From Rubritepida sp. (GTDB lineage Bacteria > Pseudomonadota > Alphaproteobacteria > Acetobacterales > Acetobacteraceae): a stretch of 61,654 nucleotides of DNA. This document shows, piece after piece, positions 3,332-9,896 of this stretch. Numbering within the stretch: position 1 is the first letter of the stretch; the number at the start of each line of letters is the position of its first letter. The notes under the pieces were generated by a model. That model did no database searches. It saw only the letters and a program-made list of their open reading frames with translations, and was not told the origin of the DNA. The stretch is from contig JBEQBS010000001.1 of the NCBI GenBank assembly GCA_041639675.1, positions 1 to 61,654 on the forward strand, in the 5' to 3' direction. The position numbers and the translations under genes are program-made.

Positions 3332-3379
3332 TGGCGTCCCCTACGGGATTCGAACCCGTGTTGCCGCCGTGAGAGGGCG
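3332..3379 (-). tRNA. 3' fragment of tRNA-Glu(CTC), integration-site (att) relic
   Basis: Minus strand reads CGCCCTCTCACGGCGGCAACACGGGTTCGAATCCCGTAGGGGACGCCA: anticodon arm with CTC, T-arm GGTTCGAATCC and CCA end. The D-arm and 5' acceptor strand are absent; adjacent to an integrase. Confidence 0.9.
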
Positions 3380-3481
3380 CGAATATCGGCCATCCTACCC
3401 TCCGCCGTTTCCGCCCACATTCGCGGATTTCCGCCATTTTCGGCCCGAAATCGTCATCCTTGTTCGTTGCCATTCCCTGGT

Positions 3482-3505
3482 GCATTCTCGAGAGCATACT
3501 CGAGA
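3482..3505 (+). repeat. Tandem 12-bp direct repeat next to att (possible integrase arm-type sites)
   Basis: GCATTCTCGAGA followed by GCATACTCGAGA (11/12 identical) between the att fragment and the integrase start. Confidence 0.5.
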
Positions 3506-3517
3506 CGGAGACATGGC

Positions 3518-4858
3518 ATGGCCGGTCGTGCCAAGGACGCCCCCATCACCACCCGGAATGCCCGGTCGAAGCTGAAGGCACGGACCAGCCCCTACTTCCG
3601 GCAGTTCGAAGGCACCGTCACGCTGGGCTACTTCAAGCCCGCGACATCGGGCAGGCCGGGCTCCTGGATCGGTCGCCGCCTCCGGGCCGACGGCACATAT
3701 GAAACCTCCAAGCTCGGCACCGCCGACGATGTCCCGGGGTCCCTCGCCGACGGAGAGGCCACGCTGAACTTCGAGCAGGCGCAGGCCGCGCTGCGCGCAT
3801 GGGCGCGGAGCCGCGCGTCCATGGAGCAGGCGGAGCGCGAGGGCAACGTCCCCACCCTGCGCAGCGCCGTCGAGGCATACATCGCCATGCGCGAGCGGCG
3901 CGACCCGGTGGCGGGGCGCGACGCGAGGCTGCGCCTGACCAGGCACGTGCTCGGCTCGCCGATCGCCGGGAAGCGCCTGCCCGAGATCAAGCGCGCCGAC
4001 ATGGTGACGTGGCGATCGGCGCTGATGCGGGGCGGACGCATCGGCGAGGGACGGCCTGCGGCACCCATGGCTCCGAGCACGCTGGGTCGCCTCTTCAACG
4101 ACCTGCGCGCGGCGCTCAACGCCGCCGCGGCGAATAGCCACCTGAACATCGCCCCGCTGCTGACCGTGCTGAAGGCACCGCCCGGCGCCGACGAGGTGCG
4201 CGACATCCAGCTGCTGACCGACGAGCAACTGCTGGCCGTGACGAAAGCCGCCGGAGAGGAGGATCCGGACTTCCACCTGCTGGTCCTCGTGCTGGCGGCG
4301 ACGGGGGCGCGGTTCGGCCAGGTCGCACGCGCCAAGGTGGGCGATTTCCAGCCTGCCCGGCAGCGGCTCCTCGTGCCGGTCAGCCGGAAGGGCAACGGCA
4401 CCAAGGACCGCAAGAAGCCCAGCCAGCCCATCCCCCTGCCCGACACCCTGGTCGCCGCCCTGCAGGCGCATGTCGCCGGTCGTGACGCCAAGGAGCCCCT
4501 GCTGCTCCGTTGGCACCACCGCAAGGTGTCGCCCTCCGCCGAGACCAACTTCCTCACCTGGGTCCGGGACGCGCGCCGCGCCTGGATCAACAGCGCCGAG
4601 ATGACGCGCCCATGGACCGCGACCCTGGAGCGCGCCGGGCTGCCGCGATCCTTCGTGCCCTATGCGCTGCGCCACACGGCGATCGTCCGGGCCTTGCGCG
4701 CGAACGTGCCGATCCGCATCGTGGCGGCCGCGCACGACACCTCGGTGGCGATGATCGAGCGGCATTACTCGGCCTTCGTGGTGGACGCCTCGGAGGAGCT
4801 CCTGCGCCGCGCGATGATGCCGGAGGCGGGAAGCGCAGTGCTGGACCAAGCGGCGTGA
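3518..4858 (+). CDS. Tyrosine recombinase/integrase
   Basis: N-terminal arm-binding-like region; catalytic motifs ATGAR, SRKG, PYALRH, AHDTS and IERHY; GGAG RBS. Confidence 0.92.
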   Translation: MAGRAKDAPITTRNARSKLKARTSPYFRQFEGTVTLGYFKPATSGRPGSWIGRRLRADGTYETSKLGTADDVPGSLADGEATLNFEQAQAALRAWARSRASMEQAEREGNVPTLRSAVEAYIAMRERRDPVAGRDARLRLTRHVLGSPIAGKRLPEIKRADMVTWRSALMRGGRIGEGRPAAPMAPSTLGRLFNDLRAALNAAAANSHLNIAPLLTVLKAPPGADEVRDIQLLTDEQLLAVTKAAGEEDPDFHLLVLVLAATGARFGQVARAKVGDFQPARQRLLVPVSRKGNGTKDRKKPSQPIPLPDTLVAALQAHVAGRDAKEPLLLRWHHRKVSPSAETNFLTWVRDARRAWINSAEMTRPWTATLERAGLPRSFVPYALRHTAIVRALRANVPIRIVAAAHDTSVAMIERHYSAFVVDASEELLRRAMMPEAGSAVLDQAA

Positions 4859-4935: not shown

Positions 4936-5232
4936 ATGCAGACCACGGGTCACGCCGAACCGACGCCAAGAAGCATCACCGGCCGGGAGGGCAGCGCCGC
5001 CATCCGCACGGCGGTGGAGCTCGGCCACGCCATCCGTGGCGCGCGGCACGACCTCGGCCTGACCCAGCAGGAGGCCGCCGATCGCCTCGGCATCACCCGG
5101 ACGACTCTGATCGGCCTGGAGCGCGGCGCCCGCGGCATCTCGCACCTCACCGTGCTGCACGTCCTGGCCGAGCTCGGCCTCACCCTGACCGTCACGCCCG
5201 CGGCGGCGCCGGACCGGCGCGGGCAGCCATGA
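4936..5232 (+). CDS. hipB: HipB-like XRE antitoxin
   Basis: IRGARHDLGLTQQEAADRLGITRTTLIGLERG HTH_3 signature; ATGA-coupled to hipA. Confidence 0.88.
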   Translation: MQTTGHAEPTPRSITGREGSAAIRTAVELGHAIRGARHDLGLTQQEAADRLGITRTTLIGLERGARGISHLTVLHVLAELGLTLTVTPAAAPDRRGQP

Positions 5233-6611
5233 CGGAAGCCCCGGCCGGAACCCCGTCGCTCGACGTGTGGCTGGCCCCCTCCCCCGTGCCGATCGGCCAC
5301 ATCCGTCCCGCGGAGCCGGGCCGTCCTGGCGCGCGCGCCCTCACCTTCACCTATGCGCCCGGCTATCGCGGCCTCCCGCTCTCCGCCTCCCTGCCCGTCC
5401 GCCCAGAGGCCTGGGCGGACCGAGACTGCCGCGTCTTCTTCGACAACCTGCTGCCGGAGGGCGAGCAGCGCGACGCCGCCGCCGCAAGACACCGCCTGGA
5501 CAGCGACGACGTCTTCGGCCTGCTCGCCCTCCTCGGGGCCGATGCGCCGGGCGCGGTCTCCATCGTGCCCTCGGGCCAAGCCACGCCGAAATCCCCTGGC
5601 CGCCTGCCGGAGGATTACGAGCCGCTGGACGGCGCCTCGCTGGAGGAAGCCGTGCGGGCCGTCGCCGCAGGCAGGGCGCCGGGCCGTGACGGGATGCGCT
5701 TCTCCCTCGCCGGGGTGCAGCGCAAGCTGGCGCTGGCGCGTGAGGGCGGGCGCTTCCTCGTCCCCCGCGGCGGTGCGCCCTCCACGCACATCCTGAAGTT
5801 CGGTGAGGACCGCGAGCCGGGCATCGTCGCCAACGAGTTGCTGTGCCTGCGGGTGTTCCGCGCCCTCGGCCTGCCGGCCGCCGAGGCGGAGGCCGTCGAG
5901 ATCGCCGGCGTCCGGGCCCTGCTCGTCACGCGCTTCGACCGCTTCCGCGAGGGCGCCGTGATCGAGCGCCGCCACCAGGAGGACGCCGCGCAGGCGCTGG
6001 GCATCCCCCGCAGCCTGAAATACGAGGCGCAGGCGCGGGAGGCAGGTCTCGATGCCGGGTTGGGCGCGCTGCTCGGCCGCTTCGCCGGGATGTGCCGGCA
6101 ACCGATCGCCGCGCGCGATGCGCTGCTGCGCGCGACCTTCCTCAACTGGCTGCTGGGCAACAGCGACGCCCATGCCAAGAACTTCGCCTTGCTGCATGGT
6201 GCGCCCGGCACCGCGCCGGGGCTCGCGCCCTTCTACGACATTGTCTGCATCCCGGCGCTCGGCCGCCCCTACAACCTGGCGCCGGCGATGCGGATCGGCG
6301 AGGCCACCTCATGGGAGGACGTGCGCCGGCGCGACTGGGAGGCCGTCGCGCGCCTGGCGCAGCCGCGCGCCGGCGCCGCGGCCCTGCGCCGAATGGTGGA
6401 CCGGCTGTGGCCCCTGGCCGTGGGGCTGCTGCCCGCGTTGGACGGCGTCGTGGCAAGTGGTGCGGTGAGCCGCATGGAGGCGAAGCGTGTCCGCGATTTG
6501 GCCGGCGAACGGCTGCGGCTGGTCAACGCGACGATGGGCTGGGCGGAGGTTCCGGTGGATACCGACGCAGCCTTCAGCAGGCCGACCGGCGGTTGGGCTG
6601 GGACATCCTGA
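5229..6611 (+). CDS. hipA: HipA-family Ser/Thr kinase toxin
   Basis: N-terminal PLSASLP, FFDNLLPEG, GADAPGAV; kinase motifs SLAGVQRK, HILK, TRFDR, HQED, GNSDAHAKN, APFYD. Confidence 0.93.
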   Translation: MTEAPAGTPSLDVWLAPSPVPIGHIRPAEPGRPGARALTFTYAPGYRGLPLSASLPVRPEAWADRDCRVFFDNLLPEGEQRDAAAARHRLDSDDVFGLLALLGADAPGAVSIVPSGQATPKSPGRLPEDYEPLDGASLEEAVRAVAAGRAPGRDGMRFSLAGVQRKLALAREGGRFLVPRGGAPSTHILKFGEDREPGIVANELLCLRVFRALGLPAAEAEAVEIAGVRALLVTRFDRFREGAVIERRHQEDAAQALGIPRSLKYEAQAREAGLDAGLGALLGRFAGMCRQPIAARDALLRATFLNWLLGNSDAHAKNFALLHGAPGTAPGLAPFYDIVCIPALGRPYNLAPAMRIGEATSWEDVRRRDWEAVARLAQPRAGAAALRRMVDRLWPLAVGLLPALDGVVASGAVSRMEAKRVRDLAGERLRLVNATMGWAEVPVDTDAAFSRPTGGWAGTS

Positions 6612-7196
6612 GATTGATCAGCCGCTCGAACGCATCATGCTGCCGGTCGGCCAATGGCAGTCCAAATGTTCGAAGCATGTTCCGCCCGCCAGATGCCAGG
6701 ATTTTCTGCGCGTTTGCCGAAGGCCGTGGCCCGTTTCCATCGTCCTTTCCACCTGCAATTCATTGGCTGGTGAAGAATGTGCTCGAACCGCCGCGAAAAA
6801 GCTGTCGCATCTGGAGTTCCGGCAGACTTGGCGCACAGGCTGGCTCCGCGCGCGTTGCGATCGGATCGCCACGAATTGCGGTGACTCATAAGGGACGTCT
6901 ACGGTCACGGTATCCGTCATTCGATGTCGTCCCTCAAGTCTGACGGTGAGGACGAGGGCAAGGATGGACACCGCAACAGCCACTCGGCTTGAGGGCAAGC
7001 GCCCGGAAGGCGCAGGTCCATTTGCTCAACCCGGCACCGCCGCCACACCTACACGTACGGGCGGCAACGGGCGCCCGCGCGCGAAGCAGCCGCGCAGTTC
7101 ACTTGATGAGCGCACGCGGTCACAGGGCGGCCACCAATGGACGCCTACGATAGAGGCCGGAGAAGTGCGGGACCTTTCGCGGAGCGGCACCCTCGG

Positions 7197-8012
7197 TCAC
7201 TCTGCAGGAGTGTGCCGCTGCGCGATCGTGGCGGGCCGCACCAGGGCCTTTCGTGGCTTGGATGCATTCCGCTTTTCCGGGCGATCCAGCGTACCAAGCA
7301 GGCGCTCGGCATAACACACAGCGGCATCCTTGACCCGCTGCTCCCCCGCCACGCACCAGAGAAGTGCGCCCCATGCCACGAGGGCCATGGCAAGCACGCT
7401 CCGATGCAGCGGCACCGTGAACTGTGGCCCCGTCTGGAACATGACGATTGCGTCGGGCCCTGCCACCGCGATCGCCGACCCCACGGCGACGATCAAGGCG
7501 GGCAGCCTGCAGCCGTGCAGGTTGCGCCAGAACCCGTAGCTGGCGTTCTCCGCCAGCACGAGGTTGTCGGCCGCCTCACGCCGGTTTTCGATGAGCCGCC
7601 GCACCGCGGAGCGGTAGGTCTGGAGCGCTGCGGCAGGATCGGCTGCCTCCTCCTCGGCCGTCGGCATGCGGCGGTGCGGTGTCATGGCCTGGAGTGCCGC
7701 ATGGTACCGGGCCTTGGTCGCCGCATCGATCCTTGGATCGCCATGGCGGAGCAGCAGCTCCGTCGGCATTCCGCCCCACTTGGCGACGAGACGCTCTTGG
7801 GCATGGAGCCCTCGCCCGCGCACCCAGGTTCCGAGAACCCAGGCGAACCCCGCCGCGGCTCCATAGAGCGCGATGTGGCTGACCGACATGGGCGGCAAGA
7901 TCGGCACGTGCACCGCGAGTGCGACCACGGCGGGCAGCACCACCATGACGCCCGGAGTGATCCGGGCACAGAGGTCGTAGCGGTCAAACAACTTCGGCCA
8001 GGGGGGCAGCAT
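7197..8012 (-). CDS. Hypothetical membrane protein (about 4 TM segments), coupled to the MBL gene
   Basis: Two N-terminal and two C-terminal hydrophobic segments flanking a soluble region with WGGMPT and ENASYGFWRNL; ATG overlaps the MBL stop (TGATG). Confidence 0.75.
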   Translation of the reverse strand: MLPPWPKLFDRYDLCARITPGVMVVLPAVVALAVHVPILPPMSVSHIALYGAAAGFAWVLGTWVRGRGLHAQERLVAKWGGMPTELLLRHGDPRIDAATKARYHAALQAMTPHRRMPTAEEEAADPAAALQTYRSAVRRLIENRREAADNLVLAENASYGFWRNLHGCRLPALIVAVGSAIAVAGPDAIVMFQTGPQFTVPLHRSVLAMALVAWGALLWCVAGEQRVKDAAVCYAERLLGTLDRPEKRNASKPRKALVRPATIAQRHTPAE

Positions 8013-9112
8013 CAGTCGTAATCCTCGACCGTCGGGTAGAACGGCAGCGGGGCCGCCGGGCCGTAGCCGGGCCTGGAAGGAAAGCCAGAGCTGTACAGGA
8101 TGTTCGCCCCCCGCGTCGCCACCACCTCCGCGCCGCGGCGGCGGAACGCATTTACGACAACCTTCCGCGGGTGCTTCTCGCCGTCCTTCGGGGCCGAGAC
8201 GACGGCGGTGAACTGGGCCGGCGTGGCCTCCGGCAGCCTGGGCCCGACCAGGCGGTCCAGGATGCTGGGTCCGACGTTGCGGCGGCTGCCGTGGTGCGGG
8301 ACCTGCACCAGGCTGAAGTCGCGGAGCGGCAGGCCGTAGGCCTCCGCGTAGTCCGCGGCGGCGCCGAGCCCGCGGAGCCCAGCATCGGCGGTGAGCAGGA
8401 CGCGGCCGTCGCCGCCGAAGTCGCCATAGAGCACCGTGCTCATCTCGTTGCGGGCGCTCGTCGAGCCCCCATCTCGCAAGGTCTCCCACCGCCAAACCTC
8501 GTCCACGCCTGCCGCCATGGTCAAGAGCCCGCCCATGGCCTTCGTCAGAGCCTCGGCGAGACTCGCCTGAAGGGCCGCCGCGGGCTCGATCTCCAGCATC
8601 TCCAGCATCTCCAGCAGCAGCCGGGGATAGGCGGCCCGCGGCGGCGACAGGACGGTGAACGGGCCGACGAAGCTGCCCTGGAAGGGTTCGAAGATGGGAA
8701 TTCGCCGGCGGTGCGCCTCGGCGACGATAGCGGCAACGAAGGGGCAGTCCTCGCGCAGCCGGTCGGCGATGCCCTGCGCGGTCCGGCGCCCGTCGCCGGC
8801 GAGCCGCTGCACCTCCTCCGCATGGGCCCAGGGCACATGCACATGCACCTGCTCGACGGCGGTCGCCTCCAGGATGGCCAGCGCCCCGGAGGCGTGGTCG
8901 GCATCGGGGTGCGACACCAGCAGCTCATGCACCACCGGGACGGCTTCCCCGGTCAGGCCCTGCAGCAGTCGGACCAGGGCATCACCCGAATCCTGGGTGC
9001 CGCCGTCAATGACCATGACGCGGGGGGCCTGGGGCTGCCCGTAGCGGATGAGGATGCAGTCGCCGGCCCGGGATGCTTCGCCCACCGCCAGGAACTCGAT
9101 TTCGAAAGCCAT
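8012..9112 (-). CDS. ComEC/Rec2-like metallo-beta-lactamase-fold hydrolase (probable nuclease)
   Basis: GDCILI, VIDGG, SHPDADH, NEMS, LLTAD, VPHHGS and KHP motifs; no ComEC membrane domain. Confidence 0.88.
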   Translation of the reverse strand: MAFEIEFLAVGEASRAGDCILIRYGQPQAPRVMVIDGGTQDSGDALVRLLQGLTGEAVPVVHELLVSHPDADHASGALAILEATAVEQVHVHVPWAHAEEVQRLAGDGRRTAQGIADRLREDCPFVAAIVAEAHRRRIPIFEPFQGSFVGPFTVLSPPRAAYPRLLLEMLEMLEIEPAAALQASLAEALTKAMGGLLTMAAGVDEVWRWETLRDGGSTSARNEMSTVLYGDFGGDGRVLLTADAGLRGLGAAADYAEAYGLPLRDFSLVQVPHHGSRRNVGPSILDRLVGPRLPEATPAQFTAVVSAPKDGEKHPRKVVVNAFRRRGAEVVATRGANILYSSGFPSRPGYGPAAPLPFYPTVEDYD

Positions 9113-9240: not shown

Positions 9241-9263
9241 TATTGAAATCAGCAGGAACACCC

Positions 9264-9896
9264 GTGTCCATCACCCGCTCCGTCCATTCACCCTCGCCTC
9301 CACCTACCACATCGCTCGGGCGCGTGGCCGAGATCTTCCCTGGGCTGGCAACCCGTGTGGCGGCTGACGGCGCCCGTCCTCCCGGTGCCATCCGCATCAT
9401 CGGTCTCGCCGACCTGGCGGACGGTCAGGTGCAGCCTCCCGGCGCGGCGAGCGCCTGGGCCGAACTCCCGCCGGAGATGATGGCCCGGCATGCGCTCCAG
9501 CCCGGCGATGTCCTCCTGGCGGCGCGCGGGTCGCAGCCGAAGGCGGCCTGGGTGGCGGAGGCAGTCCTTCCGGCGGTCGCCAGCGCCAACCTCCTCGTCG
9601 TCCGCCCCCGGCCGGGCACGCGGCCGGGGGTGGTGTTCGCCTATCTCGCCTCCGAGCCGGGCCTCGCCATGGTCCGCGCCCTGTCGCGCTCCGCGACCGA
9701 CCAGCTCTCCATCGCGGCGCGCGACCTTGCGACGCTCGATCTGCCAGCACCGCCGCGGGCGGCGCAGGACACCATCCACGACCTGATCGAGGCCAGCGAG
9801 CGCGCCTATTCGGCCGCGCTCGAGGCCGCCGCCGGGCGCCGCGCCGCCGCCCGCGCCATTGCGCTCGACCTGCTCCGCAACACGGCCGACGACTGA
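9264..9896 (+). CDS. Half-size HsdS-like protein (single target-recognition domain)
   Basis: SLGRVAEIFPG, LQPGDVLLAARG, AYLAS, DLATLDLPAPPRAAQDTI followed by a helical tail; GTG after AGGA; first gene of the hsd operon. Confidence 0.75.
   Translation: MSITRSVHSPSPPPTTSLGRVAEIFPGLATRVAADGARPPGAIRIIGLADLADGQVQPPGAASAWAELPPEMMARHALQPGDVLLAARGSQPKAAWVAEAVLPAVASANLLVVRPRPGTRPGVVFAYLASEPGLAMVRALSRSATDQLSIAARDLATLDLPAPPRAAQDTIHDLIEASERAYSAALEAAAGRRAAARAIALDLLRNTADD

Follow-up and report, generated by a model that had tools for sequence, protein, structure and literature searches.

Payne et al. (2024, bioRxiv 10.1101/2024.01.29.577857) listed 145 PDCs as candidates and reported finding PDCs within BREX, DISARM or type I R-M systems; one of them, PDC-M48, is not discussed in the main text of that preprint. 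According to the accessible text of another preprint (bioRxiv 10.1101/092577), Csx27 of CRISPR VI-B1 represses Cas13b, lowering interference, and the tagged protein was not localised to the membrane in E. coli. According to a review (PMC7642515), a 2019 paper by Makarova, Gao, Zhang and Koonin placed the Csx27-like family in operons with natural-transformation components, predicted its members to be ssDNA channels and proposed a function in DNA uptake or degradation. For one system, SNIPE, the accessible part of a preprint (bioRxiv 10.1101/2025.11.03.685801) describes a nuclease that is held at the membrane and cuts phage DNA as it enters. 6A-MBL corresponds to operon type 6a in the accessible text of Iyer, Burroughs and Aravind 2006 (PMC1779556). 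In NCBIfam, it is covered by the models NF058523 and NF058524. It is reportedly the anti-phage system of van den Berg et al. 2024, and the 2019 paper of Makarova and colleagues is said to have described non-CRISPR Csx27 homologues neighbouring WYL and ubiquitin-like genes.

We examined a 61,654-nt stretch of DNA from Rubritepida sp. (contig JBEQBS010000001.1, positions 1 to 61,654), here referred to as the window, in which an earlier note had pointed to an MBL-fold hydrolase and a membrane protein as a candidate anti-phage system that it did not recognise. The pair is a real, conserved two-gene module and is probably defensive. It is not of a new kind: as the MBL protein is PDC-M48B and its partner is linked to PDC-M48A and Csx27 through intermediates, the pair is a variant of the catalogued candidate PDC-M48. 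The features of the locus are as follows.

3332..3379, minus strand: copy of the 3′ end of tRNA-Glu(CTC), 48 nt, exact; probable attachment site of the island
3518..4858, plus strand: tyrosine integrase; context of the pair
4936..6611, plus strand: HipB-HipA toxin-antitoxin pair; context, not common to the Roseicella aquatilis copy of the block
8012..7197, minus strand: membrane-protein gene (P0001), 271 aa; predicted four-helix inner-membrane protein, likely of the Csx27-like superfamily via transitive profile links
8010..8014, minus strand: TGATG stop/start overlap; putative translational coupling
9112..8012, minus strand: MBL gene (P0002), 366 aa; ComEC-type MBL-fold metallo-hydrolase, predicted nuclease, PDC-M48B clade PDLC04676
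9243..16421, plus strand: type I R-M operon (half-size HsdS-like gene, hsdM, hsdS, hsdR, YgjP); transcribed away from the pair, with which it is colinear in R. aquatilis

The stop codon of the MBL gene (TGA, 8014-8012) and the ATG of the membrane gene at 8012 share one base, which gives the TGATG overlap described in the earlier note; the junction is identical in R. aquatilis. A longer TTG-started ORF (8495..7197) in the ORF finder's output was rejected as the start of the membrane gene because it overlaps the MBL gene and homologues start at the ATG at 8012. Both genes have many homologues, and comparison with R. aquatilis revealed purifying selection on both (dN/dS of 0.22 for the MBL gene and 0.30 for the membrane gene). 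No promoter- or terminator-like sites were found near the pair, and no DNA match to it was found in E. coli genomes.

As previously noted, the pair is flanked by HipBA and a type I R-M operon; HipB/HipA is on the left and the operon, which includes YgjP, on the right. Since the tyrosine integrase and the 48-nt tRNA-Glu 3′ copy were identified at 3332-4858, the block of membrane gene, MBL gene and R-M operon probably sits in an integrated element. The same block is present in R. aquatilis at 88% nucleotide identity from position 7282 to at least 16009, with no HipBA match beside it. To the right, the island may continue over a long distance and take in the catabolic genes of the remaining window. 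The tRNA fragment matches exactly a full tRNA-Glu(CTC) on another contig of the same genome (C17, 13977-14052), and the 3′ end of hipA (~6405-6630) has a 92%-identical copy on a further contig (C15, 4764-4988). The half-size HsdS-like gene (9243-9896, plus strand; 217 aa), also present in R. aquatilis, carries one specificity repeat and lies ahead of hsdM, in addition to the full hsdS.

Lactamase_B was the only domain found by Pfam in the MBL protein, a stand-alone 366-aa ORF which carries both motifs reported earlier, H68-P-D-A-D-H73 and P272-H-H-G-S276. It matches the PADLOC model PDC-M48B (PDLC04676) over its full length (E 4.2e-84; residues 2-363, model positions 2-356 of 357), so that the PADLOC scan proposed in the earlier note recognised this half of the pair, whereas the membrane protein matched no PADLOC model. 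By both sequence and predicted fold (pLDDT 92), the closest solved relatives are ComEC nuclease domains, with PDB 9IC4 first (E 1e-14, TM-score of 0.74 on the target). The accessible text on 9IC4 describes it as a two-Mn2+ DNase in which residues H598, D600, D602, H603, D700, H725 and S728 were mutated (PMC12455585). These seven residues map onto H68, D70, D72, H73, D243, H273 and S276 of the window protein, where all are kept; the first six are invariant in 111 MBL homologues, and S276 is replaced by G in some of them. The N-terminus leads directly into the first strand of the fold, with no signal peptide by eye, and the C-terminus is an acidic tail (77 of the 111 clade members end in D or E). 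The protein is predicted to be a two-metal DNase of ComEC type, with a presumed location in the cytoplasm. The second-best fold match is the pneumococcal phosphoesterase Pce (E 2e-8), outscored by 9IC4 by six orders of magnitude, and the MBL-fold nucleotide phosphodiesterases Apyc1 and PDE1 are also among the matches; with phosphoesterases of the Pce kind next in line among the folds, the MBL may act on a substrate other than DNA.

The membrane protein contains both of the motifs noted before, WGGMPT and ENASYGFWRNL. Its description as a protein with four transmembrane helices was supported by the AlphaFold model (pLDDT 89), in which long helices cover all four segments including the second, by the hydropathy of homologues and by the charge pattern, although only 3 of the 4 helices pass the hydropathy threshold in P0001 itself (the second passes in 4 of 7 homologues checked); we therefore regard four helices as predicted. 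The distribution of positive charges in 148 homologues places both termini and a large conserved loop of 100 residues (~64-170), rich in basic and aromatic residues, in the predicted cytoplasmic side, with 19.6 K/R per sequence in this loop vs 0.8 in each short loop. No family match was found in Pfam, NCBIfam or PADLOC, and only unnamed clusters in the ESM Atlas. Structure searches with the model gave no clear fold match in the PDB (Foldseek, best E 0.05), a best Z of 6.4 on helical hairpins with VIA, and a best E of 0.23 against a viral library; these weak matches do not show a new fold. Viral contigs searched with the single sequence gave no match, and the family size is a lower bound.

Profile-profile comparisons connected the protein to described families in steps. 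The window membrane family matched a small family of MBL partners (97%), which matched Csx27-like proteins (97%), and these matched CRISPR Csx27 (95%) and PDC-M48A (93%), while direct matches of the window family were weak (3% to CRISPR Csx27 and 0.1% to PDC-M48A). A pooled profile of nine intermediates matched the window family at 98% over 217 columns, PDC-M48A at 96% over 66 columns, and CRISPR Csx27, whose profile consists of two sequences only, at 97% over 194 columns; reversed controls stayed below 5%. Four of the intermediates came from a Csx27 search, so this link is partly built in, and for six of the nine the selection was at least in part independent of MBL context. Because of those four intermediates and the two-sequence Csx27 profile, membership of the Csx27-like superfamily is likely rather than proven.

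To follow the membrane gene across genomes, its profile was searched in species-representative genomes, which yielded 433 loci; the best 80 were taken and, after removal of 15 near-identical element copies, 65 were left. An MBL gene lies within 6.5 kb in 62 of these 65 loci (from the best 80 of 433) and is adjacent on the same strand in 44; the three loci with no MBL are near contig ends, with 36, 90 and 2493 bases of upstream contig. The neighbouring MBLs span several clades, matching different PDC-M48B models and the 6A-MBL enzyme. A WYL gene was detected in 13 and a CapP-like gene in 6 of the 65 loci (from the best 80 of 433). A locus detected with the Csx27 model offers an independent case of pairing, its Csx27-like gene having an MBL gene on one side and a gene of the IrrE/CapP type on the other (L101:259-2698). 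In seven loci, two different MBL genes lie around or beside one membrane gene (L006, L010, L018, L024, L040, L077 and L081). A nearly identical element was also identified in many beta- and gammaproteobacterial genera (L039, L041, L043, L045-L047, L049-L051, L054, L055, L057 and L058; also L028, L029 and L038), where WYL and the membrane gene are divergent from a 6A-MBL enzyme, cap2_3 and a PDC-M48B MBL.

The same association appeared when the MBL clade was followed. It was detected in 10 of 401 genomes of the order and in none of 16 other genomes of the genus; in nine of the 10 carriers a window-type membrane gene is adjacent, and in the tenth a different hydrophobic protein is the partner. 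Viral and metagenome searches gave 123 MBL loci, reduced to 104 by removal of near-duplicates, of which 86 have an adjacent membrane partner, 3 have one farther off, 12 have flanks shorter than 900 bases and 3 have none. Hence the pair conservation that the earlier note had asked about was found from both sides. The 86 adjacent partners comprise 43 of the window type, 17 of the PDC-M48A type, and 21 and 5 of two further groups, in a sample biased toward the window's relatives; these subfamily labels are descriptive, as the partner profiles were built from the same loci. A quick IQ-TREE tree built from 81 MBLs requires at least 22 switches of partner label, compared with a mean of 36 after shuffling, and its well-supported branches alone call for 6 or more switches per label in each of the three main ones. 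In some of the MBL loci, the pair is arranged convergently or divergently. The MBL keeps a membrane partner, which has been repeatedly exchanged.

Neighbourhoods were examined in 21 loci, whose 91 neighbours were scanned. These loci are what remained of the 32 that have an MBL next to the membrane gene but lack an E2-E1-JAB gene, once 8 loci shorter than 12 kb and 3 Mesorhizobium loci resembling one another had been left out. Defence or toxin-antitoxin genes, classed by eye from Pfam hits, were found at 11 of the 21 loci (from the best 80 of 433) vs at most 2 of 20 control windows, an enrichment of the sort the earlier note had suggested checking; one of the 21 (L001) is the R. aquatilis near-copy of the block. 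The classes comprise R-M, Hachiman, Dnd, TIR, HEPN, RloB/AAA, SMODS, ThiF/JAB and HipA. Recombinase, integrase, relaxase or transposition genes were present at 8 of the 21 loci (from the best 80 of 433) vs 0 of 20 controls. The controls were twenty random 11-kb windows of the same genome (114 proteins), in which 2 orphan methylases and none of these mobility genes turned up; they represent the bulk DNA of one genome and not other mobile islands, so the comparison cannot tell a link with defence apart from one with mobile cargo in general. Three of the 21 loci have other ubiquitin-like genes. In five loci (L012, L013, L015, L022 and L060) the pair adjoins an AAA ATPase/RloB (AbiL-like) pair, followed in three of them by a 6A-MBL-type gene, and L063:10250-12481 encodes a fusion of a 6A-MBL enzyme with an E2 domain, beside a SMODS cyclase gene and an MBL/membrane pair.

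The pair is patchily distributed and is carried on phages, plasmids and islands. A Ralstonia phage bears the window-type pair. In the P2-like phage 11W, the MBL clade occurs with a PDC-M48A-type partner between gpA and the genome end; the position after gpA in P2-like phages is a defence hotspot, according to the accessible text of Rousset et al.

Taken together, we consider it probable that the two-gene module has a defence role. How it would act is a more tentative matter. Perhaps the MBL is a DNase effector that is tethered and restrained by the membrane protein and cuts incoming phage DNA, a reading which we prefer with less than even confidence. The membrane protein would bind the MBL at the inner face of the cytoplasmic membrane and hold it in check until phage DNA enters; released or activated at DNA entry, the MBL would cut the incoming DNA, which may protect the cell from the phage. 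We favour this reading because of the intact nuclease chemistry, the presumably shared compartment, the near-obligate pairing, the repression of Cas13b by Csx27 and the precedent of SNIPE. Partner exchange, the phosphoesterases among the next-best folds and the failure to see tagged Csx27 at the membrane speak against it; partner swaps and convergent or divergent pairs do so since a tight and specific interface would be expected to resist them.

The earlier note had cast the two proteins as an enzyme or sensor and a membrane effector; these roles are possible and we rank them below those of a nuclease effector and a membrane tether or brake. In a version of them which we find rather unlikely, the membrane protein is the killing effector, a pore or depolariser causing abortive infection, and the MBL is a sensor or regulator, e.g. 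one making or removing a nucleotide ligand. The conserved basic and aromatic cytoplasmic loop could bind such a ligand, Apyc1 and PDE1 resemble the MBL in fold, a single protein from a sister family of partners has a weak match to the PADLOC '2TM' effector model (E 1e-3), and the membrane gene also occurs beside 6A-MBL, WYL and CapP genes. However, the membrane gene is almost never found apart from an MBL, no cyclase is a regular neighbour (one SMODS gene among the 21 loci, from the best 80 of 433), no pore-protein fold stood out in structure searches, and Csx27, the relative that has been characterised, reduces interference instead of increasing it in the accessible account.

It is improbable that the pair serves DNA uptake or scavenging as a split ComEC analogue, with the membrane protein as an ssDNA channel and the MBL degrading one strand. 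The closeness of the MBL to the ComEC nuclease domain and the 2019 channel prediction for the Csx27 family (as quoted in PMC7642515) point this way, and a substitute is conceivable as the canonical ComEC channel domain (Competence, PF03772) was not found in the 93%-complete genome. Nevertheless, the absence of nearby competence genes claimed in the earlier note extends to all 91 neighbours of the 21 loci (from the best 80 of 433), and a patchy occurrence on phages, plasmids and islands does not suit uptake. Orientation also argues against it. The nuclease domain of ComEC faces outward. So does its OB fold, in the accessible text of PMC12455585, whereas the window MBL has no export signal by eye. 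Very improbable, in our view, is a non-defence phosphoesterase with a membrane anchor, acting on lipid or surface-polymer phosphoesters like Pce; Pce is the second-best fold match and 10 of the 21 loci have no recognised defence neighbour (from the best 80 of 433), but 9IC4 scores far better, and the defence and mobile context and the P2 hotspot location disagree with such a role. Least probable is a detached 6A-MBL accessory that works only with the E2-E1-JAB enzyme and is idle here: an E2-E1-JAB gene does lie within 6.5 kb at 30 of the 65 membrane-gene loci, but at 32 of the 65, some on short contigs, an MBL is adjacent and such a gene is lacking (both from the best 80 of 433), no cap2_3 gene is adjacent to the pair or exceeds the cut-off in the genome (93% complete), purifying selection acts on both genes, and the MBL does not have the glycine-containing tail seen in 11 of 11 6A-MBL enzymes checked.

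Returning to the tethered nuclease, a wider form of it, which we offer as a doubtful conjecture, is that Csx27-like proteins might be a general membrane platform docking interchangeable nucleases (several MBL clades and Cas13b) at the point of phage-DNA entry. The pair would then be the smallest version able to work by itself, with a DNase that derives from ComEC, is directed inward and tells self from non-self by location. If so, a function would be suggested for Csx27 and for the unannotated membrane gene beside 6A-MBL; if the pair is protective at all, this would bear on the role of Csx27-family proteins. The architecture is already catalogued, and the window copy is a clean two-gene version that is easy to assay. 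A literature search, with most subscription papers outside its reach, found no paper reporting phage protection, nuclease activity or binding for the pair and none describing it, though the supplements of Payne 2024, Makarova 2019 and van den Berg 2024 may already do so.

Among known systems, the MBL components of Avs1a, Lamassu LmuA and DRT (RTasMBL) gave short, motif-level partial matches (E 1e-13 to 6e-3), and the pair differs from these systems in that neither a STAND ATPase nor an SMC protein or reverse transcriptase accompanies its MBL. With 6A-MBL it shares an MBL-fold protein in a defence setting, and homologues of its membrane gene often adjoin 6A-MBL; nevertheless, the window MBL scored 17 bits vs the 220-bit cut-off of NF058524, and with no cap2_3 and no glycine tail it was rejected as a 6A-MBL enzyme. 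It shares with ComEC (9IC4) the fold, the catalytic residues and an identical H-P-D-A-D-H motif, and differs in being stand-alone, ~100 residues longer and free of the OB and competence channel domains. SNIPE is a functional analogue for the proposed mechanism, and the analogy serves only to suggest that mechanism.

The likeness to Csx27 of CRISPR VI-B1 consists of four predicted helices, an N-terminal Y-x-x-x-x-x-x-x-P pattern and a Y-G/F-F-x-R-N motif, found in full-length alignments to the intermediate profile; as with Csx27-like genes, neighbours of the membrane family include ComEC-like MBL, E2-E1-JAB and WYL genes, whereas neither Cas13b nor a CRISPR array was seen beside the pair. PDC-M48A itself is a hydrophobic protein of ~165 aa, and a 162-aa MBL neighbour in phage 11W, used as a positive control, matches it at E 6e-49. 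The 271-aa window partner misses all PDC-M48A models and is linked to them through intermediate profiles alone: none of 31 members of its family match, the models (PDLC04670-72) were not found in the window's genome, and they had no match in two samples of 301 genomes. The window pair also lies beside, and not inside, the R-M operon. On the other hand, the MBL belongs to the same clade (PDLC04676) and the architecture, an MBL with a multi-pass membrane protein, is that of PDC-M48. In our sample, biased toward the window's relatives, the window type is the commonest partner of this clade, and the PADLOC PDC-M48 models, with 17 of 86 partners of the M48A type, miss most of the membrane proteins with which PDC-M48B is paired.
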